Shown: positions 30,361 through 43,250, counted from the first letter of the stretch. The stretch: DNA of 64,000 nt from Candidatus Brocadiia bacterium (GCA_050015075.1 JBEKCB010000005.1:128001-192000); one strand, 5' to 3'. Notes: generated by a model not told the origin, from the letters alone. Program-made: numbers and translations.

Positions 30361-31269
30361 ATGGCCGGCGATCCGCAGGCGCCGCTCAAGGCGCTCGAGC
30401 CGAAGCACGAGTTCTTCATCGGCATTGACTCGGACGGCTGCGCGTTCGACACGATGGAGATCAAGCACAAGGAGTGCTTCTGCCCGAACTTCATTGACCA
30501 TTTTCACTGCCAGGCGGTCAGCAAGTACACGCGCGACGCCTGGGACTTCGTCAACCTCTACTCGAAATGGCGCGGCTGCAACCGGTGGCAGGCGGTCGTC
30601 CGCGTCCTCGACCTGCTCCACGACCGCGACGAGGTCAAACGCCGCCACGCGAAGATCACCGAGGGCAAGGCCATCAAGGAGTTCGCGAGATCCAACAAGG
30701 TGCTGAGCAACGACACGCTCAAGGAAGCGATCGCGCGCGCCCACGATCCGGCGGCGAAGAAGGAGCTCGAGGAGGCGCTCGCCTGGTCGAAGGCGGTCAA
30801 CGAGTCCATCGCGAAGATGGTGCATGACGTGCCGCCCTTCCCGTTCGTCCGCGAGTGCCTGGAGAAGGCGTTCAAGAAGGCGGACATGATCGTCGTCAGC
30901 CAGACGCCGACCGAGGCGCTCGTCCGCGAGTGGAAGGAACACCGCATCGAAGGGCACGTCAGCCTCATCGCCGGCCAGGAGATGGGCAGCAAATCCGAGC
31001 ACATTCAGTTCGCCGCCGGCGGCAAATACCCGCCGTCGAAGATCCTCATGATCGGCGACGCGCCCGGCGACCTCAAGGCCGCCCGCGACAACAGCGCGCT
31101 GTTCTTCCCCATTGATCCGGGCAGCGAGGACGCTTCCTGGCAAGTGCTCTTCGAGGAGGGCCTCGACCGCTTCTTCGCGGGCACTTACGCCGGCGCATAC
31201 GAGAAGAGACTCGTCGAACAGTTCGACCGGCTGCTGCCCGAGCGGCCGCCGTGGAAGAAGAAGGGCTGA
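30361..31269 (+). CDS. HAD-family hydrolase
   Basis: GIDSDGCAFDTM, VVSQT, GQEMGSK, and MIGDAPGD. Confidence 0.85.
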   Translation: MAGDPQAPLKALEPKHEFFIGIDSDGCAFDTMEIKHKECFCPNFIDHFHCQAVSKYTRDAWDFVNLYSKWRGCNRWQAVVRVLDLLHDRDEVKRRHAKITEGKAIKEFARSNKVLSNDTLKEAIARAHDPAAKKELEEALAWSKAVNESIAKMVHDVPPFPFVRECLEKAFKKADMIVVSQTPTEALVREWKEHRIEGHVSLIAGQEMGSKSEHIQFAAGGKYPPSKILMIGDAPGDLKAARDNSALFFPIDPGSEDASWQVLFEEGLDRFFAGTYAGAYEKRLVEQFDRLLPERPPWKKKG

Positions 31270-31322
31270 GCCATTGTCAATGGCCCATTCCTGACGGATA
31301 GCGGATAAGGGATGATAGGCTT

Positions 31323-31398
31323 GGGCCGGTTTCGGCATTACCCCATGGCCTTCGCATGAACCCCTCGTGCGTTGGTTCAGCCGAGGCCGGCCCTTTTT
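31323..31398 (+). terminator. Branched stem-loop with U-tract (terminator or attenuator)
   Basis: 14-bp stem (31323-31336/31380-31393) with 2 G:U pairs, an inner TGAACC/GGTTCA hairpin, then TTTTT. Confidence 0.6.
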
Positions 31399-31442
31399 AT
31401 TGCCGCAGGTGAAAAAACGTTCTCGGACAGTTGGAGAATCGA

Positions 31443-32825
31443 ATGGATCCCCGGCGGGAAAACATGCTGCGCGAGCTGCGGTCCATCCTCGGCGCCGAGC
31501 GCGTCTCGGCCGAGATCGAGGAGCGGATCCTCGCGTCTTACGACGGCACGCGCCGCTCCGCGCTGCCGGACATCGTCGCGTTCCCGCAGACCGCCGAGGA
31601 AATCTCCCGCGTGCTGCGCTGGGCAAACCGCGAGAAGACGCCGGTCTATCCGCGCGGCGCGGCGAGCGGGCTGACCGGCGGCGCGGTGCCCGTCGGCGGC
31701 GGAGTCGCGCTCGACCTCCGGCGGATGAACCGCATCCTCGAGGTGGACGACGACAACCAGGTGGCCACTGTCGAGCCGGGCGTCACCGTCAGCGATTTCC
31801 AGGCCGAGGTGCAGCGCCGCGGCCTGTTCTATCCGCCCGACCCCGCCAGCGCGGATTTCTCCACGCTCGGCGGCAACGTCGCCGAATGCGCCGGCGGGCT
31901 GCGCGCGGTCAAGTACGGCGTCACGCGCGATTACGTCACCGGCCTCGAGGTCGTCCTGCCGCAGGGCGACATCATCCACGTCGGCGCGCGCACGCTGAAG
32001 TGCGTCACCGGCTACGACCTCACGCGCCTCTTCGTCGGCTCCGAAGGCACCCTCGGCGTCTTCACGAAGATCCACCTGCGCCTCATCCCGCTCCCGCCGG
32101 CGCGGCGCACGCTGCTGGCGCTCTTCGAGTCACCCGAGGCCGCCGCAAACGCCTCGACGCGCGTCCTCAAGGCCGGGATTCTGCCGGCCGCGCTGGAGTT
32201 CATAGATGACGTGACGATCGAGTGCATCCGCAAGAAGCAGCCGCTGGATATCCCCGCCGCCGCGCGGGGCGCGCTCATCATCGAGCTCGACGGCGACGAG
32301 GCCTCCTGCGTCTCCGGCATCGGGATCATTGCGGGCGTTCTCGCCCGGAACGGGGCGCTGGAGAGCCGCCGCGCCGACACGCCCGCCGACCGGACGCGGC
32401 TTTGGGCGTTCCGCAAGGCCGCCTCGCCCGCGCTGTTCGCGGCCTTACCGAACAAGCTCAACGAGGACATCTGCGTCCTGCCGAGCCGCACCTCCGAGAT
32501 GCTCCGCCGCACGCGCGACATCGCCGCGAAGCACGGAGTCCTCATCGCCAACTACGGGCACATCGGCGAGGGGAACCTGCACGTGAATATCATGTACCCG
32601 CACGGCGAAAAGGCGCACGCCGAAGCCGAGGCGGCCTCGGTCGAGGTCATGAAAGCCGCCCTCGAACTCGGCGGCACACTCTCCGGCGAGCACGGCATCG
32701 GCCTGACCAAGCTGGAGTTCCTTCCGCTCGAAGTCGCCCCCGTCGAACTCGCGCTCATGCGCTCCATCAAGAAACTGCTCGACCCGAACAACATCCTCAA
32801 CCCGGGGAAAATTTTCAGTTCCTGA
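31443..32825 (+). CDS. FAD-linked oxidase, GlcD/D-lactate dehydrogenase family
   Basis: PRGAASGLTGG, YPPDPAS, VGSEGTLG, GHIGEGNLH, GEHGIG, and LNPGK. Confidence 0.92.
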   Translation: MDPRRENMLRELRSILGAERVSAEIEERILASYDGTRRSALPDIVAFPQTAEEISRVLRWANREKTPVYPRGAASGLTGGAVPVGGGVALDLRRMNRILEVDDDNQVATVEPGVTVSDFQAEVQRRGLFYPPDPASADFSTLGGNVAECAGGLRAVKYGVTRDYVTGLEVVLPQGDIIHVGARTLKCVTGYDLTRLFVGSEGTLGVFTKIHLRLIPLPPARRTLLALFESPEAAANASTRVLKAGILPAALEFIDDVTIECIRKKQPLDIPAAARGALIIELDGDEASCVSGIGIIAGVLARNGALESRRADTPADRTRLWAFRKAASPALFAALPNKLNEDICVLPSRTSEMLRRTRDIAAKHGVLIANYGHIGEGNLHVNIMYPHGEKAHAEAEAASVEVMKAALELGGTLSGEHGIGLTKLEFLPLEVAPVELALMRSIKKLLDPNNILNPGKIFSS

Positions 32826-32833
32826 CGGCTTGA

Positions 32834-33463
32834 CTATGCGCCGTGGTATCGTTTCTTTACGGTCGCCGGACCCTGATGCCCTACGGAGCGGGCGATCTGG
32901 TCAAGCCGTTGTACGCCGATGAAGCCGTGATATTTCGCCGCCAGCGAGCGAAGACGGGCATAGCTTTTGGTCGGCGTAACCTTGAGAAGCTCGGCGACGT
33001 CCCGGTCGTCCTTGGCGTCGAAGATGGCCAGCTTCATGCAAACCAGGTGATCCCGCGGAACGACGGGCACGGCGAAAGGACCGATGTGAAGGCGTTTGCG
33101 CTGTCGTCGCGCGGCCCGGACGGCATCGGCGAATAGCCCCGACAAATGCGGGTGCCGGTCTATGAAGTCAACGGCGATTCCCGACGTCCGTACTCCGCAC
33201 CCGCCGATATCCAGACTCTTGACTTTGTACCCTTTATCCGAAGCGATTACCGCAAGATCGCGCTCGCGCCCATAAGGCACCGCGAAATTAACTTCCTTCG
33301 TGAGTCCTTGCCCTTCAGCGGGAACATAACTCCACACTGCCAGCCGGCCGGCGAGAGCAAATGGCGTACGGGCTTCGCGCAAAATCGTGAGACCCGCCAA
33401 AAGCGACTTCTCGGCATCAAACCGAAGAGAGGACATGTCGGTCTGCTTCCGATATCTCGCCAC
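32834..33463 (-). CDS. Nucleotidyltransferase-like protein (AbiEii/DUF6036-like), degenerate motif
   Basis: FALAGRLAV, TKEVNF, and LVCMKL....KD..DV..L; lower GC. Confidence 0.55.
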   Translation of the reverse strand: MARYRKQTDMSSLRFDAEKSLLAGLTILREARTPFALAGRLAVWSYVPAEGQGLTKEVNFAVPYGRERDLAVIASDKGYKVKSLDIGGCGVRTSGIAVDFIDRHPHLSGLFADAVRAARRQRKRLHIGPFAVPVVPRDHLVCMKLAIFDAKDDRDVAELLKVTPTKSYARLRSLAAKYHGFIGVQRLDQIARSVGHQGPATVKKRYHGA

Positions 33464-33477
33464 GGTGCGCTCTCCTT

Positions 33478-35418
33478 CTAAGGCTTCTTCGCCTTGACGA
33501 AGTTCAGCATTCCGCCGGCCAGGATGATCTCGCGTTCCCGCGGGCCCAACTCGCAGCGGAGGGCGATGGTCAGGTCCTTCGCGGGGACCTTCAATTCGAG
33601 GTCCTTCCCGGCGGCGATCCGCGCGCGCAGGTCGGTGACCTCGACGCGGTCGCCCTGCTGCAGACGGTCGTAGTCCGCCTCGTTGACGAACGTCGCCGGG
33701 ACGATGCCGAAGTTGATGAGGTTGGACCGGTGGATGCGCTCGATCGTCTTAGCGGCGACCATCCGAACGCCGAGGTGCATCGGGCATAACGCCGCGTGCT
33801 CGCGGCTGGAACCCTGCCCGTAACTCAGTCCCGCGACGATCACGTTGTCCACGCCGTTCTTTTTATTCGACCCCGCGCGGCCGGCGAAAGTCGCGTCCAC
33901 GTTCTCGAACACGAACTCGGAGTACTTGGCGATGTTCGACCGGTACTTCATCCGCGAACCGGCCGGGATGATGTGGTCGGTCGTGACCTTGTCGCCGACC
34001 TTGATGGCGACCTCGCCCGCGATCCGCTCCTTGAGCGGCTCGGCGACCGGCGGCAGCCCGATACCGGCGCCGCGGTAAATCTCGACCTTCGATCGGTCCG
34101 CCGGCGGCTGGAGGATCATCGCGTCGTCCACGTGGAATTTCTTCGGCAGCCGGATCGCCGGCGGCGCGGAGCCGAGGTCGCGCGGGTCGGTGATGACGCC
34201 GGTGATGGCCGCGGCGGCAGCGACTTGAGGGCTGACGAGGTAGACGTTCGCCGACTGCGTGCCGCTGCGCCCGAGGAAATTCCGGTTGCTGGTCCTGAGA
34301 CTGACGGCATGGCTCCTCGGCGCCTGGCCGATGCCGATGCAGAACCCGCAGGCGCATTCGTTGATGCGCGCGCCGGCCGCGATGAGCGCCGCCAGCCCGC
34401 CGCTCGCCACGATCATCTCCATCACCTGCCGCGACGCGGGCGCGACGACCAGGCTGACATTCGGGTGCAGCCGCCGGCCTTCGAGCATCTTCGCGACGGT
34501 CATCAGGTCGCTATACGAGGAGTTCGTGCAGCTCCCGACGCAGACCTGGTCCACCGGCGTGCCGGCGATCTCGCGCACCTTGGCGATGTTGCCGGGGCTA
34601 TGCGGCGTCGCGGCCAGCGGCTCGAGCGCGGAGAGGTTCACCTGCATCCGCTTCTCGTACGCCGCGCCCGGCTCCGGCTTCAGCTCGATCCATTGTTCCG
34701 CGCGCCCCTGCGCGGTCAGGAACCGCCGCGTGACAGAGTCGCTCGGGAAAACAGAGCTGGTCACGCCCATCTCGGCGCCCATGTTGGCGATCGTGGCGCG
34801 TTCCGGGACGGAGAGCGTGCGGACGCCCGGCCCGGCGTATTCGACGACGAAGCCGACGTTCCCCTTCGTCGTGAGCTGCCGCAGCATTTCCAGGATGATG
34901 TCCTTGGCTGAGACCCACGGCGAGAGTTTGCCGGCGAGGTCCACGCGGCAGACGCTCGGCGCCGCCAGCGTGAACGTCCCCTGCGCCATGGCGGCGGCCA
35001 CGTCGAGCCCGCCGGCGCCGATGGCCAGGCAGCCGATGCCGCCGGCGGTCGGCGTGTGCGAGTCGGAGCCCAGCAGCGTCTTTCCGGGGCGCGCGAACCG
35101 CTCCAGGTGCACCTGGTGGCAGATGCCGTTCCCCGCGCGCGAGTAGAGAATGCCGTATTTTGCCGCCACCGTCTGGAGATATTTCTGGTCGTCGGCGTTC
35201 TCGTAGCCGTCCTGGAGCGTGTTGTGGTCCACGTAACTGACGGAGAGTTCCGTCTGCAGCCGCTCGGCGCCCATCGCCTCGAGCTGCAAGTACGCCATCG
35301 TCCCGGTCGCGTCCTGCGTGAGAGTCTGGTCAATCCGGATCGTCAACTCCCGGCCGGGCTCCAGGCTTCCGGAGACCATGTGTTCATTGAGGATTCTGCG
35401 GGCGACGGAAAGGCGCAT
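33478..35418 (-). CDS. Aconitate hydratase (short, Aquifex-type)
   Basis: DQTLTQDATG, DHN, GSDSHT, GSCTNSS, CGFCIG, TTDHI, and GSSREHA. Confidence 0.92.
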   Translation of the reverse strand: MRLSVARRILNEHMVSGSLEPGRELTIRIDQTLTQDATGTMAYLQLEAMGAERLQTELSVSYVDHNTLQDGYENADDQKYLQTVAAKYGILYSRAGNGICHQVHLERFARPGKTLLGSDSHTPTAGGIGCLAIGAGGLDVAAAMAQGTFTLAAPSVCRVDLAGKLSPWVSAKDIILEMLRQLTTKGNVGFVVEYAGPGVRTLSVPERATIANMGAEMGVTSSVFPSDSVTRRFLTAQGRAEQWIELKPEPGAAYEKRMQVNLSALEPLAATPHSPGNIAKVREIAGTPVDQVCVGSCTNSSYSDLMTVAKMLEGRRLHPNVSLVVAPASRQVMEMIVASGGLAALIAAGARINECACGFCIGIGQAPRSHAVSLRTSNRNFLGRSGTQSANVYLVSPQVAAAAAITGVITDPRDLGSAPPAIRLPKKFHVDDAMILQPPADRSKVEIYRGAGIGLPPVAEPLKERIAGEVAIKVGDKVTTDHIIPAGSRMKYRSNIAKYSEFVFENVDATFAGRAGSNKKNGVDNVIVAGLSYGQGSSREHAALCPMHLGVRMVAAKTIERIHRSNLINFGIVPATFVNEADYDRLQQGDRVEVTDLRARIAAGKDLELKVPAKDLTIALRCELGPREREIILAGGMLNFVKAKKP

Positions 35419-35836
35419 CTGTTTTCTCCTGGTTTGCCGACTAGGGAATGCGGGTCGCAAACTGGAACGTTACACGGAATGGCCAGCAAAATCAAGGCAG
35501 CGCGGAGTGCGGATAAGGACGAAAAAAAGATGAAGGCTTAAGAACGGCGGCAGATTATGAGCCGTCTTTATCCTTCATCCTTGAATTTCACTTTACAAAC
35601 GGGATTCCGATGGTCAAAATACGATATAGTATGGCTGACCGTCACGCGCGCGCAGCGTTCTGCGCGCGATAGGTTGGGTTGTCTGAGGAATTTCAGATAA
35701 TCTCGTGTTTGAAAGCCGACTGTCCTTGGGAGGACGGTCAAGTGGGAAATCCCGGATTACACGGCTTAAGCCTGCGCGCCGCAGCGGCGACGAGAACCGG
35801 GCGTCCCGCGCTGCGGCCATCTTTCGCGGACCCGTT

Positions 35837-38800
35837 ATGAACTCCAAAGAACGCCGAAGCAATGAGCCGTTGCAGCTCTCCTCGGAAGCGACCGCCGACT
35901 TCCGAGTGCTGGTGGAGAACCTCGCCGAGCCGGTCGTGATCATGGACCGCGCCGGCACGATCCGCTTCATGAACCCGCGCGCGGAGCGGATGCTGGTGCT
36001 GGGGCTCAAGGAACAGGTCGAAGCGTACCTGAAAAACCCGTCCCACCGACAACCGGACAGCCAAGTCCGATTCCGTGTCGACCGCTTCGGCGACCTGGTC
36101 CTGCGAATCCACATTTCCAATGTCCCCTGGCAGGGCCAGCCGGCGATGCAGGTGTCGCTGAGGAACGTAACACACTACGTCACGCCCGCACAACGCTTCT
36201 CGGAGGAGACCGCGCAGTTCAATGGGGACAACGGCGGCTCGCAGAGATCGCTCGAGCAACTCGAGGCGCGGTTACAGGATCTCGCCGCGGAACGCGACAA
36301 CGTTTACGCTGCGACTGCGCAGCGGCTCGCACAGGAGACCGCCCAGTTCCAAAAAAACCAGCAGGAGGCGCAGGCGCAGCGCGAACGGCTGGAGGCGCAG
36401 TTGAAAGAACTCGCCGCGGAGAAAGAACGCATCGAGCAGTCGCTCCGCGCCGAACTGGCGCAACTTCGCGAAGCCGCGGCCAAGGCGGAGCCGGCCAACG
36501 AGGACCTCGTCCAGGCCCGGCGGACGATGGACGAATTAGCCGCCGCCCGCCGCGAACTCGAGGCGCGCACCGGACATAGCCCCGAGGAGTGGTCTTCATT
36601 GAGGCAGCTCCAGGCGGACGCAGCGGAAGCGGAGAGCCGGCTCGCGGCGGCGCAGAAGAAGTCCAGAGCGGCGGCCGAGAAGGCGAGCGCCGAGCGGCGC
36701 CAGGCGCAGGATGAGGCGCAGTCACTCCGCGAGCGGCTCGCCGAGGCCGAGCGCGCAACGGCGGAGTCGGCCGAGCGCAATCGGCGGCTCGACGAACAGG
36801 TGAATCAGCTCGCCGCCGAGCGCGAGAACGCCGCCCGACAGCTTCACGATGCGATCGCTGCGCGGGACCGGTCGCAGGACGAAATCGCGCGGTTGCAGCA
36901 ACTGCTCGACGCAGCCGGCCGCGCGCAGGAGGAATTGAGCGCCGGCCGCCAGGCGCTCGAGGAGCGGGCCCGGCAGCAGGCCGACGAACTCCTGAAGTCC
37001 GGCGCGCAACTTCAGGCCGAGTCCGCGAGCCGCGCCGAGGCGGAGAAGACCGTCGCACAACTTCAGGCGCAGGTCGCCGACGGCGACAACGCCAAGGCGG
37101 AAAGTGAACGCCTTCGGCAGCAGATTGCTGAAACCGAGAGCGCGGGCAAGAATCTGCATGCCGAGCAGCAGAGGCTGACGGAGCGCGCGCAACAGGCTGA
37201 GGAAGCGTCGGCAAAGCTCCGGGACCAGCTCCGGCAGCAACTCGAGGAACTCCAGCGTCTGCGGGATGCAAACAGCTTGATGGAGCAAGAGCGGGCGGCA
37301 TCCGCGCGGGTGGCCGATGAACTGCGGGCCCGCAGTCAGACCATCGAGGGACGTGCGAAAGAGCAGGCCGACGAGCTGACCAAGGCGCTCGAGCAACTTC
37401 GGGCGGAAATCGCCCAGCGCGAAAAACTGACAGCAGAGGCTTCTCAACTCCGTGACGAGGCCGCCGAGTCCCGGCGCGTGCGCGAGGAGTTGGAGACACG
37501 GCTCCTCCAGCTTCAAGGACCCTTGGCGGAGCTGGCCCGCGCGCAGGAGCAATCCAAGGCAGAGCTTGCGAAAGAGACCGAGCTCCGGGCGCGAGCCGTG
37601 GCGGAAGTCCAGCAGCTCCGGCAAGAGGTTTCTGCGGCCCGGCAGGCGCAGGCACAGCTTGCCGCGCAACGGGCGGAGCTTCAAGTACAGGTCGAGGAGC
37701 TGACCGCGCCTCGGAAGCGGCCCGATGAGGAACTGGAGAAGGAGAAGGCGGCGCAGCTCGAGTTGGCGGAACTTACCGCCCGGTGCCTCCGGTTCCAGGA
37801 AGAGATCAAGAAACTGGCGGCATCGCAGGAACGGGCGAACGTGCAACTTCAAGTTGAGTACGCAGAGCGAAAACGAACGGAAGAAGAAAACGAGCAACTG
37901 CGCGAGCACGTCGCCGAGTCCAAGCGGGCTGCAGAGTACCTCAGGAATCAACGGAACGTGCTCGAGGGAGAGGTGAAACGATGCGGCGACGAAATCGCCG
38001 CGCTCACGCAACAACTTCGGCACGAAGGGGGCCAGGGGAAGCAGGCCCAAGTGGAAAATGAGCAGCTCCGGCAAGCGCAGGCAGGCTGGGAGGCCCGGTA
38101 TTTCCAGGTCCAAGAGCAACTGAAGGAACTGGCCCGCGCACGGGAGGAGGTCAAGGCGCAACTGGAGAAGGAAGTCGGGCAGCGGACGCGAGCCGAGGCG
38201 GCAGTCCAGCAGCTCCGGCAGGAGGTCTCTGCGGCCCAGCGGGCGCGGGCAGAACTCGCCGCTCAGCAGACGCAGCTTCAGGCGCAGAGGAGGGAACTCT
38301 CTGTCTTCCAGGGGAACTCCCAGGCGGAGTTGGAGAGAGAGATTGTCGAACGAAAACGAGCCCAGGGCGAAGTGGAGCAGCTTCGCCACGAGCGTTTCGT
38401 CCTCCAGAAGGCGCAAGAGGAACTTGAATTGCGCCACACGCAGTTCCAAACGCAACTGGATGACGACGCGAGGGCGCTGGACGAAGCGCGGCTGAAGCTT
38501 CAAGAGGAACACTCCCAGCGGGAGCTGTCAGAAAAGCAGAATGAACAGCTGTCGCAGGAAATCGGTCAGGTCAACCGAGCGCTGCAGGAGTCGGAGGCCA
38601 AACGCTCCGAACTGGAAGCGGCAACGACCGCCCGCCCGGCTGAGACGGAGAAGCTCGTGAAGCAGGTTGGCCAGGAGGCCGCCGAGCGCGAACAACTGCA
38701 GGCAAGGCAGCACGACCTCGAACTGGAGCTGGCCGAGCTCAGACAGGCGGAGGCAAAATGGCAGCGGCAGCGCGACGAACTGGAAGCGCTGGTGCAATTG

Positions 38801-39832
38801 AGGAGCGAGGCAATGGAAAAGACCGATCAGCAGCTTCAGACGGAGCTGGCGGCCCGGAAGAAGGCCGAGGAGGAAAACCTGGCCCTGCAGCAGGCCGTTG
38901 CCGAGGCCGCCCGGATGAGCGAGGAATTCGGAGGCGAGCGCGCGCGTCTTGGAGAACAGGTGAAAGAACTCTCGGACGCCCTGAACGAAACCAAGGCACA
39001 CGTCCTGGTCGAAATGGACGAGCGCGCCGACGCCGAGAAGGAAAAAAAGCAGCTCGAGCAGGATGTCGAGCAACTCAAACGAGCCGACGAGGAATTGCGG
39101 ACGCAACGGCTGCAGCTCATGGGGCGACTGAAGGACAACAGCGAGGGACTCTCCAGGGTTCGGGAGCAACTCCAGGAGGAAGCCGTAGATCGGAAACGGG
39201 CTCGTGAGGAGAACGACAAGCTGCGCCAGGATCTGGGCGAGGCCTTGCGCGCAACGCAGGAGGCGAAGAAGAGCGCGGAGGAGTTTGAAGCGCGCGCGCG
39301 CGCGCACGCCGAGGAACTGATGAAGGCCAACGAAGCGCTGCGACAGGAAGCCGCCGAACGCCAACGCGCCCGGGAGGAAAACGACCAACTCCGGAGCCTG
39401 ACGGCCGAGACCAAAGCGGCCTTGGAGGAATCGGCGACGCAGCGCGACGAGTATAAGAGTTGGGCCGAACAGCGCGCAGAAGAACTGCGGCGGCAAATCG
39501 CCCTGCAGCAGCAAGCCCAGGAAGAGAACCAGCAACTTCAGCAGAAACTCGCCAAGTCCATGCAGTCCGTGGAGACCTTCAGGGCAGGATTCGAGGCGCT
39601 CAAAGGCCTGGCGAAAGCGAGCGCCGACGAAACAGCCAGGGAGAACGAAGCCCTTCGCCAGAAGCTGGCCGAGTACGAGCGGGAAGGACAGTCGCTGGGC
39701 ACGGTCCTGAACGACCTCTCCGCGTCAGGGAGCAAGTTCCTCGGCGCGCTCGAGAAGTTCAAAGCGCACGGTCGGGAGCCGCCTCGCCCTGAGACCCCGG
39801 GCGCAGCGTCCGAGGCCGGGGAGAATCGCTGA
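35837..39832 (+). CDS. PAS-domain protein with a ~1200-aa repetitive coiled coil
   Basis: FRVLVENLAEPVVIMD..G.IRFMNPRAERML...LRNVT PAS pattern, followed by E/Q/R/A/L heptads with a 56-aa period. Confidence 0.8.
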   Translation: MNSKERRSNEPLQLSSEATADFRVLVENLAEPVVIMDRAGTIRFMNPRAERMLVLGLKEQVEAYLKNPSHRQPDSQVRFRVDRFGDLVLRIHISNVPWQGQPAMQVSLRNVTHYVTPAQRFSEETAQFNGDNGGSQRSLEQLEARLQDLAAERDNVYAATAQRLAQETAQFQKNQQEAQAQRERLEAQLKELAAEKERIEQSLRAELAQLREAAAKAEPANEDLVQARRTMDELAAARRELEARTGHSPEEWSSLRQLQADAAEAESRLAAAQKKSRAAAEKASAERRQAQDEAQSLRERLAEAERATAESAERNRRLDEQVNQLAAERENAARQLHDAIAARDRSQDEIARLQQLLDAAGRAQEELSAGRQALEERARQQADELLKSGAQLQAESASRAEAEKTVAQLQAQVADGDNAKAESERLRQQIAETESAGKNLHAEQQRLTERAQQAEEASAKLRDQLRQQLEELQRLRDANSLMEQERAASARVADELRARSQTIEGRAKEQADELTKALEQLRAEIAQREKLTAEASQLRDEAAESRRVREELETRLLQLQGPLAELARAQEQSKAELAKETELRARAVAEVQQLRQEVSAARQAQAQLAAQRAELQVQVEELTAPRKRPDEELEKEKAAQLELAELTARCLRFQEEIKKLAASQERANVQLQVEYAERKRTEEENEQLREHVAESKRAAEYLRNQRNVLEGEVKRCGDEIAALTQQLRHEGGQGKQAQVENEQLRQAQAGWEARYFQVQEQLKELARAREEVKAQLEKEVGQRTRAEAAVQQLRQEVSAAQRARAELAAQQTQLQAQRRELSVFQGNSQAELEREIVERKRAQGEVEQLRHERFVLQKAQEELELRHTQFQTQLDDDARALDEARLKLQEEHSQRELSEKQNEQLSQEIGQVNRALQESEAKRSELEAATTARPAETEKLVKQVGQEAAEREQLQARQHDLELELAELRQAEAKWQRQRDELEALVQLRSEAMEKTDQQLQTELAARKKAEEENLALQQAVAEAARMSEEFGGERARLGEQVKELSDALNETKAHVLVEMDERADAEKEKKQLEQDVEQLKRADEELRTQRLQLMGRLKDNSEGLSRVREQLQEEAVDRKRAREENDKLRQDLGEALRATQEAKKSAEEFEARARAHAEELMKANEALRQEAAERQRAREENDQLRSLTAETKAALEESATQRDEYKSWAEQRAEELRRQIALQQQAQEENQQLQQKLAKSMQSVETFRAGFEALKGLAKASADETARENEALRQKLAEYEREGQSLGTVLNDLSASGSKFLGALEKFKAHGREPPRPETPGAASEAGENR

Positions 39833-39935
39833 ATCCTGACCGCGGTCCGCGCGGAGAAACGTCAGGGCACAGTGGCGCGGGCTGTTGCGCAGACTCAACG
39901 TCCGGAGGCGAACGCAACCGGACCCGACTTCGCAA

Positions 39936-40049
39936 CTATTTCCTCTTGCACGTGCATTTCGCCGAAGGTTTCTTACAGGCTGAACAAACTCCGTCCTTGA
40001 TCGCTGCCCCGCATTTGCTGCACGGGCTACATCCGCATGTCTGGCACAT
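39936..40049 (-). CDS. Small Cys-rich peptide (metallothionein-like), 37 aa
   Basis: Hand translation MCQTCGCSPCSKCGAAIKDGVCSACKKPSAKCTCKRK*, with an AAGGGGA RBS. Below the ORF-track cutoff. Confidence 0.75.
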   Translation of the reverse strand: MCQTCGCSPCSKCGAAIKDGVCSACKKPSAKCTCKRK

Positions 40050-40099
40050 GATAAAGCATCCCCTTTCTTCTGCCAGCCGCTCCACTGTGTCCTTACTGA

Positions 40100-40129
40100 A
40101 AGCTAAGCAATTGAAAGCAGAATTGTCAA
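40100..40129 (-). promoter_or_regulatory. Promoter for the Cys-rich peptide
   Basis: Minus strand TTGACA-N18-TAGCTT. Direct repeat TGAAAGC at 40097-40103 and 40112-40118. Confidence 0.5.
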
Positions 40130-41268
40130 GACTTTTTCGGCCCCTTGAACCGCCGCGTGGGCACCGTCTCCGCGCGCATTCCGGTCGCGACCGCGACGGG
40201 AACCGCGCCGCCGCCGGCTTGCTTCAGGGCGGAAATGACTTCCTTCTCCCGGCCGGGCGCGACCGAGATGAAACTGTTCGTCCCCAGCACGATCTTGCTG
40301 CCCAGCGCGCCGCCGCCTGTGGCGGCGGTGATCAACGCCTCGATCTCGGGAACGTTGTATCCCAGGTAATCCCGGAGCAACTCGTGCTGCTTGTCCATCA
40401 TCTCGACCAGCCGGTCGTCGTCAATCCCGTACTCGCTCTCCAGCAACTCGAAGGCCTGCCGGCTGAGATCGCGCATCGCCAGCTGCGCGTACACGACGCC
40501 GGCATCCGCGTCCGGCAGTTCCTTGAGGCGCGGGATCACCTCGTCGTCGGAGGCGTCGCGCAGGTTGAACCCCTCCTGCATTTTCACGACTGCGCTCAGC
40601 GCCGAGAGCGTGGCCCGGACCGCCTGCGCGTGCCGGTCGAGGCCATTCCCGCCCGGCCCGGCGCAGCAGCTCACCAGGCCCGGCAGCGCGCGGTCAATCA
40701 GCGCCACCTGGGACGGCCTGGCCGCCGGGAGCGCCGGGTCGCCGGGCTCCAGGAACAACATCCCGCCCAGAATGCAGGCGTACGTCTCCGGGATCCACCA
40801 CGCGGTGCGCGGCTCGTCCCGATAGGCCCGGCAGGCGGCCTGCGCCGTCTCATTGGCCGAGAGCTCGGCCAGTCGCTCATCCAGCGAGAGCAGCGCAACG
40901 GCCCACGCGGCGAGCAGCGCCGGGCTGTCCGGCAGCGCATCCGTCCAGGGCGCGCGGGAAATGACGTGAAAATCGAATCCGGCCTGAAGTTTTTCTTTCC
41001 GCGGCGGCGCCGCGCGAAACGCCTTTGAAAGCGCCGGCATCTGCGGGAACGCTTCCGCCGCTTCGCCCGGCTCGAACGACATCGGCTCCGGAATCCACGG
41101 CGCGCTCACCGAAAACCGGCCGTCGCTCCGAGGCGTCGCCGCAACGGCGGTGCGCAGGTCCAGCGCCAGCGTGACGGCCGGAAGGCCGAGGAAATACTGA
41201 AGGTCGCCGAACAGCCGGACCGGCCAGGGCACGGAGACGATGAGCGTTTTCCCCTGCTCGACGGTCAT
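40126..41268 (-). CDS. GHMP-kinase (galactokinase-like) protein with degenerate motifs
   Basis: VSVPWPVRLFGD...LGLP, YA..LGG, H.LLRD.L....PEIE.L, and GALGSK. Confidence 0.65.
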   Translation of the reverse strand: MTVEQGKTLIVSVPWPVRLFGDLQYFLGLPAVTLALDLRTAVAATPRSDGRFSVSAPWIPEPMSFEPGEAAEAFPQMPALSKAFRAAPPRKEKLQAGFDFHVISRAPWTDALPDSPALLAAWAVALLSLDERLAELSANETAQAACRAYRDEPRTAWWIPETYACILGGMLFLEPGDPALPAARPSQVALIDRALPGLVSCCAGPGGNGLDRHAQAVRATLSALSAVVKMQEGFNLRDASDDEVIPRLKELPDADAGVVYAQLAMRDLSRQAFELLESEYGIDDDRLVEMMDKQHELLRDYLGYNVPEIEALITAATGGGALGSKIVLGTNSFISVAPGREKEVISALKQAGGGAVPVAVATGMRAETVPTRRFKGPKKS

Positions 41269-41705
41269 TGAGGCTCCGCCTTGAACGGTCCCTCGAACGC
41301 CGTGTCGAAGTCGAAACCGCCCGCGAAATCCTCCCGCGCGTCGCTTTCCGTCTTCCCCAACAGCCCGTGCTCGACCAGGTTGAAGACGATCTCGCCGAAA
41401 TCCTCCGTGCGCCGGACGCGCCAGGTCCGGAAAACGGTCGGCGCCAGCGGTCCGAACATTTGCGCGGCGTACTCGCGAATGCCGTTGAGGAGTTCCTGCC
41501 CGCTGACGTGCCGCTGCGCCGGCGTCAGGTCCGGGGCGTTGCGCCCGAGCGCCTTCTGCGTGTACGTCAGCGCGTCGTAGATGAAAAGATATGCCGCCAG
41601 TTCGTAGCGCGAATCGCGGGAAAGGATCTGCTGCCGGATGGCGGTCTCCGCCGGCACCGCCTCCGGCTTCGCTGCGGGACTCTGCGGAGCTTTTTCCTCA
41701 GTCAT
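41265..41705 (-). CDS. Minf_1886-family protein
   Basis: D.RY...AY.F...AL, HVSGQELL.G, FGPLA..V...W, and DFGEIVFNL. Confidence 0.85.
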   Translation of the reverse strand: MTEEKAPQSPAAKPEAVPAETAIRQQILSRDSRYELAAYLFIYDALTYTQKALGRNAPDLTPAQRHVSGQELLNGIREYAAQMFGPLAPTVFRTWRVRRTEDFGEIVFNLVEHGLLGKTESDAREDFAGGFDFDTAFEGPFKAEPQ

Positions 41706-41723
41706 CGGATCGGCGCCCCAGGC

Positions 41724-43250
41724 TTACGTTTCTTTCTTCGGGAACAGCGGCTGCCCGCGCCGGATCTTCGTGCCCGGCTTCAGGCCGCCCCAGGTCAGCG
41801 CTTCGGCCAGCGTGCGGCGCTCCTCCTCGATGCCCAACTGCTGCCGGATGGCCAGCGCCGAGGCGGGCATCGTCGGCTCGATCAGCAGCCCCAGAATGCG
41901 CGAGGCTTCCGCCAGGTGATAAAGCGTCGCGCCCAGCGCGGCCCGCTGGGCCGGGTCCTTCGCCTGCGACCAGGGCTTGCGCTCCTCGACGTACTGGTTC
42001 GCGCGGCGGACGAACTCCCAGATGCGCTCAAGCGCGCGGCTGAACTGCAGCTCGGCCATGCACGCGTCCACGTCCTGGAAAAGCGACGCAGCGGCCTCGG
42101 CCAGCGCGCCGTCCCGCTGAGCGGGACCGGGGTCCGGCACGACTCCCTGGAAGTAGCGGTCCATCATCGAGAGAGTCCGGAAGACGAAATTGCCCAGGTC
42201 CCCGGCCAGCTCGGCATTGTAGCGCTGGAGCATGGCGGAATCGCGGAAATCGCCGTCGAGGCCGAACGGCAGCTCGCGGAGCAGGAAGTAGCGCAGCGCG
42301 TCGGCGCCGTAGACGTCGGCGACCTCGCCGGGCGTGACGAAATTGTTCTTGCTCTTGCTCATCTTCTCGCCGTTGTGCGTCCACCAGCCGTGCGCGAAGA
42401 CGCCCTTGGGCGGCTCCAGCCCGAGCGCCATGAGCATCGCCGGCCAGATCGCTGCGTGGAACCACAAGATGTCCTTGCCGATCAACTGCACGTCAGCGGG
42501 CCAGCGGCGGCGGAACGTTTCCTCGTCGGTCGAATAGCCGACGGCGGAGACGTAATTGATGAGCGCGTCAATCCACACGTAGGCGCGGTGCGCCGGATCG
42601 AACGGCAGGGGCACGGCCCAGTCGAGCGTCGTCCGCGTGGCGCTCAGGTCGCGCAGCCCGGCGGCCACTCGCGAGCGCAGCTCGTTCATCCGGCCGGCGG
42701 GCCGGACGAAATCCGGGCGCTCCTCGTAGAGTTTGAGCAGCCGCTCCTGGTACCGGCTCAACCGGAAGAAATAGCTCGCCTCGGAGTTCCATTCCGTCGG
42801 CCGCCCGCAGTCCGGGCACTTCGGCTGCGGCTCGTCGGACTCCTTCAGGAACGACTCGCACGAGACGCAATACCAGCCCTTATATTCGCCCGGATACAGG
42901 TCGCCGGAATCGCGCCAGCGCTGAAAAATGAGCTGCACCACCCGCTCGTGCCGCGCCTCGGTCGTCCGGATGAAGTCGTCGTGAGAAATCTCCAGCCGCT
43001 TCCAGGCATCGTGATACGCCGCGACGACGCGGTCGGCCAGTTCGCGCGGCGCAAGCCCCTCAGCCTGCGCGGCGCGCTGCACCTTCAGGCCGTGCTCGTC
43101 GGTGCCTGTCAGAAAAAGCACGTCGTAGCCGCATTGCCGCTTGTAGCGCGCGAGCGCGTCCGCGGCGATGGTCGTGTATGAGTTGCCGATGTGCGGCGAG
43201 TCGGTCACGTAGTAGATCGGCGTGGTGACGTAGAAACCGGGCTTACTCAT
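41724..43250 (-). CDS. metG: Methionine--tRNA ligase (short form)
   Basis: TTPIYY, HIGN, GTDEHG, CxxC..CxxC knuckle, and KMSKS. Confidence 0.97.
   Translation of the reverse strand: MSKPGFYVTTPIYYVTDSPHIGNSYTTIAADALARYKRQCGYDVLFLTGTDEHGLKVQRAAQAEGLAPRELADRVVAAYHDAWKRLEISHDDFIRTTEARHERVVQLIFQRWRDSGDLYPGEYKGWYCVSCESFLKESDEPQPKCPDCGRPTEWNSEASYFFRLSRYQERLLKLYEERPDFVRPAGRMNELRSRVAAGLRDLSATRTTLDWAVPLPFDPAHRAYVWIDALINYVSAVGYSTDEETFRRRWPADVQLIGKDILWFHAAIWPAMLMALGLEPPKGVFAHGWWTHNGEKMSKSKNNFVTPGEVADVYGADALRYFLLRELPFGLDGDFRDSAMLQRYNAELAGDLGNFVFRTLSMMDRYFQGVVPDPGPAQRDGALAEAAASLFQDVDACMAELQFSRALERIWEFVRRANQYVEERKPWSQAKDPAQRAALGATLYHLAEASRILGLLIEPTMPASALAIRQQLGIEEERRTLAEALTWGGLKPGTKIRRGQPLFPKKET

Follow-up and report, generated by a model that had tools for sequence, protein, structure and literature searches.

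The window analysed here is a 64,000-nucleotide stretch of DNA from a Candidatus Brocadiia bacterium (GCA_050015075.1 JBEKCB010000005.1:128001-192000), and the gene on its + strand at positions 35837..39832, comprising 1331 codons and a stop, encodes a protein with a PAS tip, a giant coiled-coil rod and no enzymatic part; the gene is real and conserved. By design, the protein would be a coiled-coil scaffold headed by a signalling domain, and its mode of construction is unusual, the rod consisting of a repeated unit that resembles the linkers of PAS signalling proteins. The anatomy, the periodicity, the conservation, the family and the linker resemblance are read directly from the data described below. 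As to the role, the chances appear evenly balanced that we are dealing with a passive scaffold or spacer, dimeric with parallel chains and ~175 nm long, with a design like that of FrzS and AglZ in which a PAS domain replaces the receiver. The original prediction, generated from the DNA sequence, had described one N-terminal PAS domain followed by ~1200 residues of heptads; this observation was confirmed, with a PAS_8 match and heptads across residues 125-1314, and its interpretation is partly supported.

The PAS head comprises residues 19-125 (35891..36211, + strand), as delineated by Pfam, AlphaFold2 and Foldseek. Pfam assigns residues 21-58 to PAS_8 (25.3 bits, cut-off 21.8), with PF00989 just under threshold on the head (20.3 versus 22.6 bits), and the AlphaFold2 model, built on an alignment of 16 family heads, displays a predicted local distance difference test score (pLDDT) of 84-90 across residues 31-110. 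In this model, a cap helix (residues 16-27) precedes five strands (33-36, 42-44, 74-81, 85-98 and 101-110) and two further helices (47-52 and 57-66), and a long helix starts at residue 137; the five-stranded antiparallel sheet flanked by helices, found in the model and by Foldseek, is that of a PAS domain, with a short helical segment between strands 2 and 3 (residues 45-73). Foldseek discloses 17 matches at E <= 0.001, the top ones listed being PAS/LOV sensor-domain structures (DosP, FixL and short LOV among them), whereas a PDB sequence search with the head yields one weak match (3b33, E 8.6e-4) and the ESM Atlas returns PAS clusters only, at 0.88, under the 0.9 lead level. The alignment of the 16 heads comprises 12 invariant and 8 nearly invariant columns, none of which is His or Cys, and therefore the head has no conserved heme or flavin site. 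The head profile also picks up PAS domains of GGDEF and histidine-kinase proteins. A two-copy complex prediction of the head and first heptads (alignment A1) scored 0.34 against a mark of 0.42, and is used neither for nor against the reading.

The coiled-coil rod extends over residues 126-1314 (36212..39778, +) and comprises ~20 units of 56 residues with few indels, according to heptad phase, unit map and composition. The residues A, E, Q, R and L account for 71% of the rod, which contains six prolines per 1170 residues, and the a and d positions carry ~60% of the hydrophobic weight between residues 125 and 1314. At 0.1485 nm per residue, the ~1190 heptad residues amount to ~177 nm, in line with the ~180 nm first proposed. 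The heptad phase shifts about five times within residues 160-635, and within residues 636-1185 it does not shift save for two short local excursions. A PDB sequence search with the rod gave nothing at 1e-4. A transmembrane segment is unlikely, the top 19-residue Kyte-Doolittle mean being 0.96, and the Pfam and NCBIfam scans of the protein agree with the claim that it contains no kinase or ATPase domain.

The 56-residue periodicity is significant. In a BLOSUM62 autocorrelation over residues 141-1331, lag 56 stands highest, with z = 13.4 against 200 shuffles preserving each heptad class, and lags 112, 168 and 224 come next; lag 28 falls outside the top lags. The eight anchor motifs named in the original prediction are located at residues 779, 835, 891, 947, 1003, 1059, 1115 and 1171, spaced by exactly 56 residues, within eight consecutive exact units (residues 765-1212; 38129..39472, +; anchors and unit map). 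The further 56-residue units and the single 49-residue unit claimed upstream are also recovered: anchors lie at residues 674 and 730, and the step after the latter is 49 residues long; the unit map places these units from residue 660 (56 residues) and from residue 716 (49 residues, 53 in the ortholog), at 37814..38128 (+). A hidden Markov model (HMM) built from 10 C-terminal units finds N-terminal units outside its training set, with independent E-values (iE) of 5e-5 to 6e-10. The projected unit starts are 135, 192, 269, 325, 381, 398, 454, 510, 566, 660, 716 and 765, then 821 to 1157 every 56 residues, and finally 1206, the tiling spanning residues 135 to ~1260. Irregular steps of 57, 77, 73 and 94 residues occur in the N-terminal half, and the map as a whole also includes two of 49; the 94-residue step is explained by 56 residues plus a 38-residue insertion (residues 613-650; 37673..37786, +) that contains 2 prolines and is missing in the ortholog, as observed by pairwise alignment and in the unit map. 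The exact period is limited to residues 660-1212, and the copies have diverged, with 22% identity at lag 56. The duplication claimed at the DNA level was retrieved by repeat search, comprising a first, reference copy (37471..37690, +) and a second copy (38068..38287, +) that are 71% identical over 220 nt at a spacing of 597 nt.

The phase-constant units display a common core, consisting of L(a) at column 12, E(d) at column 15 (9/9), R(a) at column 19 (9/9), A(d) at column 22 (6/9), N(a) at column 26 (5/9), L(d) at column 29 (9/9), R(a) at column 47 (6/9) and L/F/Y(d) at column 50. Among the HMM-selected units of other family members (n = 67), the Glu is preserved in 53/64, the Arg in 55/65 and the Leu at column 29 in 66/67.

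The C-terminal end comprises (i) a conserved motif that includes S-G-x-K-F-L-G-A-L-E-K-F-K (residues 1280-1314; 39674..39778, +), supported by substitution rates and by an HMM of the tail, and (ii) a poorly conserved end predicted to be disordered (residues 1315-1331; 39779..39829, +). Modelling of the last 197 residues shows a single helix that extends as far as residue 1312, the remaining 19 residues being disordered (pLDDT <50, 1313-1331). The ratio of nonsynonymous to synonymous substitution rates (dN/dS), calculated against the ortholog, is 0.16 at residues 1291-1314 and 0.74 at residues 1315-1331. The tail HMM matches the ortholog, the 484-residue paralog-type protein L013 from the sister genome and P0027 with iE 5e-19 or better; in the alignment with short paralogs the tail S, G, E and K are invariant, and the 309-residue paralog of the genome shares the motif more loosely. 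The tail may possibly be a membrane-targeting helix.

The integrity of such a repetitive gene was assessed in four peat-metagenome runs beyond those flagged as possible source, over 30 bins. The listing of sequencing runs contained no RNA run with the gene, a result that bears on expression neither way. All 30 bins are covered by contigs in 4/4 of these further runs, and a single contig crosses 36871-39374 with zero differences; an assembly artefact was thus ruled out by the contigs of the four runs. A syntenic ortholog at locus L011 shares 80% identity (1034/1293 aligned residues) with two in-frame indels, and preserves the stop codon and the C-terminal end, its rod being 34 residues shorter than that of the window protein; a like match is listed in the same-genus genome. 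Compared with the ortholog, the gene as a whole has a dN/dS of 0.43; the PAS head gives 0.48 and the rod 0.34-0.51. The notion of a non-functional gene, either a repeat assembly artefact or a drifting low-complexity open reading frame (ORF), could draw on the repetitive, A/E/Q/R/L-rich sequence and the fairly high dN/dS; nevertheless, the contigs of the other runs are identical across the repeats, the ortholog holds the frame for ~1300 codons, both the heptad phase and the E/R core have been preserved, and the family occurs in 3 reference genomes and ~45 metagenome clusters. The probability of this explanation is almost nil, and we consider it already refuted by contigs, ortholog, core and family.

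The family is a rare one, recognised by its head. The same head opens six more proteins of 309 to 1612 residues in the genome, which thus contains 7 copies; the same-genus genome has seven proteins that begin with it, and a second genus within this taxonomic family has two; the three reference genomes carrying the rod family represent one family-level Planctomycetota lineage. A head-profile scan of 1.84 billion representatives gave 31 matches at E <= 1e-30 and ~45 metagenome proteins with an N-terminal head, P0036, P0044 and P0047 being dropped by eye as multi-PAS signalling proteins; matches below ~1e-20 correspond to PAS domains that form part of GGDEF and histidine-kinase proteins. Across 301 evenly drawn Planctomycetota genomes, the head was detected at E <= 1e-12 only in the window's genome and, weakly and once, in one other. 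With residues 1-150 as query, a word-indexed search covering 314 candidates (732-2330 residues) returned a single protein at E <= 0.001, a locus search retrieved no relatives of P0046 in reference genomes, and the database sources checked contain no name for the rod family.

Comparison of the family members discloses that the ends are conserved and the rod length is variable. The 484-residue L013 shares 46% identity with the window protein in the head and 68% in the last ~200 residues. Pfam scanning of 17 head-bearers (the window protein, 6 paralogs, 6 G001 loci, 2 G002 loci, P0002 and P0023) showed no enzymatic domain in 16 of them, the exception being a paralog fused to a protein kinase. Lag 56 ranks first in the window protein, the ortholog, the paralog C20, L012 and P0002, and second, after 168, in L018 from the other genus; among 26 metagenome relatives of at least 330 residues, it is the top lag in 6, and one more displays 112 and 168. 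The other paralog branch shows periods of 60, 81, 91, 123 or 137 residues. With default filters, the unit HMM finds only the window gene and the paralog C20 among all ORFs of its own genome. The paralogs C20 (L020:4992-8495, -), with near-identical 56-residue copies (lag-56 identity 0.38, z 22.9), and C26 (L024:5245-10107, +), with 60-residue copies (identity 0.44, z 33.4), carry recent tandem expansions. In distant members (P0035, P0042, P0046 and P0003) the head is followed by a canonical PAS_3 and then by repeats; the metagenome protein P0003 (489 residues) comprises two tandem family heads, PAS_3 and a short coiled coil. The paralog C23 (L023:2555-3916, +) is located ~1 kb from dnaA, in convergent orientation.

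The ancestry of the unit was addressed with the unit HMM, filters off, against 105 non-family PAS proteins and 105 reversed decoys, giving 19 matches of at least 5 bits in 15/105 PAS signalling proteins and 0/105 decoys. In the best matches, unit columns 3-24 fall on PAS histidine-kinase linkers of the type 'LE.QV.ERTAEL.KAN..L..EI.ERK.AE', and a descent of the first third of the unit from a post-PAS histidine-kinase coiled-coil linker is supported at the motif level. The S-helix is described as ~40 residues in 5 heptads, with an ERT signature and Asn at a (PMC1592074). Both the S-helix and the rod unit display polar core residues and Asn at a, and unit columns 1-24 align to kinase linkers; on the other hand, the S-helix is one ~40-residue module between two signalling domains, whereas the rod comprises ~20 tandem 56-residue units with nothing downstream. 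The window protein, the ortholog and the paralog C20 contain no match to the ERT-type pattern [EKQN]R[TS].[EDQ]L, but it is kept in relatives, occurring in nine other family proteins and thrice in P0046, exactly 56 residues apart. The signalling-linker origin originally proposed thus holds as far as motif-level HMM matches go, but the ERT signature is missing from the window protein itself. We read the family as derived from a protein of PAS and linker whose output domain was lost, or had never existed, and which amplified an extended linker, this lineage having probably lost the switch residues.

This descent invites the idea of a one-component sensor, in which the PAS domain would respond to a ligand or redox change and the coil would relay this response to binding at the tail. 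Effector-less structures of PAS plus helix do exist, including short LOV proteins among the fold matches; PpSB1-LOV and SBW25-LOV share with the window protein a PAS core, a C-terminal helix and the lack of an output domain, but they are flavin-binding proteins of ~140-170 residues, in contrast with a 1190-residue helix and a head with no conserved cofactor-binding residue. Transmission over ~175 nm appears implausible, and the switch features of the S-helix (PMC1592074) are lost, with no ERT-type match. A sensor of this type is very improbable.

In the scaffold reading, the gene product would be a cytoplasmic structural protein consisting of (i) the PAS head, (ii) a heptad rod of ~1190 residues, ~175 nm when extended, and (iii) a short, conserved helical end. 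The rod would have arisen by tandem amplification of the 56-residue, 8-heptad unit, whose polar core, in which a Glu at d and an Arg at the a that comes next precede Ala and, in many units, Asn, would hold two parallel chains paired in register. A partner or surface would be docked at each end, by the PAS pair and by the conserved tail respectively, the rod setting the head-to-tail distance, and like-headed paralogs with other rod lengths would set other distances. A passive scaffold or spacer is suggested because the ends are conserved, the rod length is variable and there is no catalytic part.

The chain arrangement can be deduced in part from the heptad phase. Since the phase shifts are asymmetric between residues 160-635 and 636-1185, the two rod halves cannot pair with each other, and the asymmetric breaks would exclude both a fold-back hairpin and full-length antiparallel pairing. 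In the S-helix, an Asn at position a is read by the authors as pairing with its twin in a parallel dimer (PMC1592074); the Asn at a in the unit and the descent from parallel PAS linkers favour a parallel in-register dimer, as judged from sequence.

The closest design is found in FrzS and AglZ from Myxococcus xanthus, which comprise a degenerate N-terminal signalling domain, a long coiled coil and a short tail, with no enzymatic output. The localisation of FrzS needs its N-terminal receiver, a 258-residue coiled coil and the tail at its far C-terminal end (PMC1974792). The head is a receiver in FrzS/AglZ and a PAS domain here, with no Response_reg match, the taxon is another and there is no sequence relation; in addition, the window rod is ~4.6x longer than the 258-residue rod of FrzS and built from 56-residue repeats. 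The resemblance is proposed as an analogy of design, not membership.

Several points weigh against the scaffold reading. We infer the dimeric state, the parallel orientation of its chains, the docking at either end and the role as a scaffold. The rod length is not fixed: the shorter rod of the ortholog makes a strict ruler, as first suggested, unlikely, and a 321-nt joint occurs in contigs of two runs. The whole-gene dN/dS indicates only moderate constraint, and all linker matches are weak (<=13.2 bits). A looser tail pattern falls in the last 70 residues in 10/12 occurrences among 58 family proteins, a suggestive distribution, but the pattern was written post hoc; moreover, a hydrophobic-moment test did not single out the tail. 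Finally, the neighbours of the window gene and of 5 paralogs are unrelated, including aconitase, MetRS, DnaA, IlvD, MlaD, a sigma-54 activator and DUFs. The joint itself lies at 36493-36815, in the N-terminal half of the rod, where an in-frame link skipping 321 nt (107 codons) is present in contigs from both X7 and X10, a weak observation with just 30 nt of flank on the shorter side; it may represent a shorter allele or a repeat-induced link.

A second, unlikely explanation is a self-assembling, intermediate-filament-like polymer, in which dimers would associate laterally or staggered by whole 56-residue units (8.3 nm), guided by the periodic polar core and the alternation of charges and gated by the PAS domain. 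Crescentin, FilP (PMC6599971) and Scy (PMC3718342) share this anatomy of a long, unbroken rod between short ends. The likeness extends to the similar size of these giant coiled-coil rods, and the N-terminal end of the window protein is a folded PAS domain, a head that the three lack. The Scy repeat has a length of 51 residues and is non-canonical, whereas the heptads are canonical here. Scy comprises 1326 residues with a long-period repeat (PMC3718342). The Pfam Filament and Rod_CreS models do not match the window protein.

The charge distribution bears on the filament from both sides. Myosin rods have a 28-residue period, with charge periods of 28/3 in antiphase, and a myosin-like 28-residue period had been invoked for the window protein. 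Such a period is missing from both the autocorrelation and the charge Fourier analysis; in the latter, the peaks expected at 56 and 28 are absent, and only the harmonics at 9.33 (56/6) and 8.0 (56/7) emerge. At 9.33 (28/3), acidic and basic residues are in antiphase (-178.6 degrees) and the basic intensity (10.3) exceeds the 95% maximum of the shuffles (7.7), in support of the filament; the acidic intensity (6.6) is nonetheless sub-threshold, and antiphase is also expected from i/i+4 salt-bridge spacing. Similarly, the invariant E/R core every 56 residues means that pairing shifted by whole units also satisfies the core, but with units 22% identical such a shift mismatches most non-core positions. 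The seven paralogs, with periods of 56, 60, 81, 91, 123 and 137, suggest no single lattice.

The genome, 93.6% complete, encodes MreB (461 bits), with no match to the FtsZ_C or Tubulin Pfam families; this combination keeps the cytoskeletal reading worth testing. A broader and improbable version holds that the proteins form PAS-gated filaments, or ~175-nm tethers anchored by the tail with the PAS pair capturing a target, as a new cytoskeletal or tethering class in a planctomycete for which the search gave no FtsZ. Recurring every 56 residues, the invariant E(d)/R(a) marks would then act as a vernier, allowing pairing only in register or with shifts of whole 8.3-nm units. The closest analogy for the tether is provided by eukaryotic tethers of the golgin/EEA1 type, here built from a recycled signalling linker.

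A further alternative places the protein as partner or regulator of a Ser/Thr kinase, the PAS-rods pairing, via head or coiled coil, with a kinase-fused membrane paralog to recruit, space or sequester it. The sole kinase link is this single paralog, G000:C1:137228-141916 (+; equal to L025:5229-9917), which comprises a PAS head, a ~460-residue coiled coil, Pkinase, TPR and FGE-sulfatase, in frame and with no stop; this fusion recurs in P0023, a metagenome protein from a separate assembly, and the paralog head is homologous to that of the window protein (31% identity). The fused paralog belongs, nevertheless, to the other sub-branch, without the 56-residue period, and hetero-pairing along the rod is therefore unlikely; besides, no kinase gene is near the window gene and the fusion affects 1/7 paralogs of the genome only. 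Altogether, we regard a kinase-partner role as improbable. The fusion junction repeats the first ~11 codons of the gene, with ~30 nt alike and unlike upstream DNA.

Two known families with long coiled coils or PAS domains were considered and rejected. SMC/Rad50 proteins share the long coiled coils, and weak NCBIfam SMC matches were obtained; TIGR02168, however, scores 64.7 bits versus a cut-off of 567, on coiled-coil stretches only, with neither ATPase halves nor hinge. An SMC-type fold-back is also rejected, the heptad breaks of the two rod halves not being mirror images and no globular domain occurring in the middle or at the C-terminus. A sensor histidine kinase, complete or truncated, is discarded by the lack of HisKA/DHp or HATPase_c in Pfam and NCBIfam, by the stop and tail kept in the ortholog and by the convergent orientation of the next gene.

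The open frame spans 35705-39832 (+), with the ATG at 35837 giving 1331 residues in the ORF list and translation, and the gene appears monocistronic, standing alone among housekeeping genes. The upstream intergenic region (35461..35836, +) contains a single sigma-70-like site at 35592-35620 (+), a consensus match only; no Rfam families were found over 35400-40200, and a + strand intrinsic-terminator scan at the gene found nothing. An aconitase gene is located upstream on the opposite strand, and the downstream order is a convergent GHMP-kinase-like gene, a hypothetical conserved in Planctomycetes/Verrucomicrobia, MetRS and PSP1. The translation of 35780-35836 (..IFRGPV-M), just upstream of the ATG, resembles the pre-start stretches of the ortholog and two paralogs (VFLRGPV, VFRIH), and may correspond to a conserved 5' leader or an earlier alternative start (GTG 35705). 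A (GC)10 dinucleotide run within the gene (39290-39309) codes for ARARAHA. The two larger parts of 30398-42415 without alignment to the sister-genome locus L011 are 32816-33494 and 31412-31484, the former containing a minus-strand ORF of 209 residues that neither Pfam nor NCBIfam matches.

The literature searched, including that on Planctomycetes, the cytoskeleton and the anammox ring protein kustd1438, contains no description of a PAS-headed repeat rod. In this family, a signalling part, the post-PAS linker, has been turned into a building block, amplified about twenty-fold into a rod that exceeds most coiled-coil proteins of bacteria in length, with the sensor-type domain still at the tip. 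For very long repetitive coiled coils, the Glu/Arg pair buried at regular intervals offers a clear, testable rule of how register might be kept, and could serve protein designers. In the host, an uncultured peat bacterium, the seven paralogs with like heads and differing rods, one of them fused to a kinase, suggest a toolkit of spacers or scaffolds in a bacterial group with poorly understood cell organisation and division.

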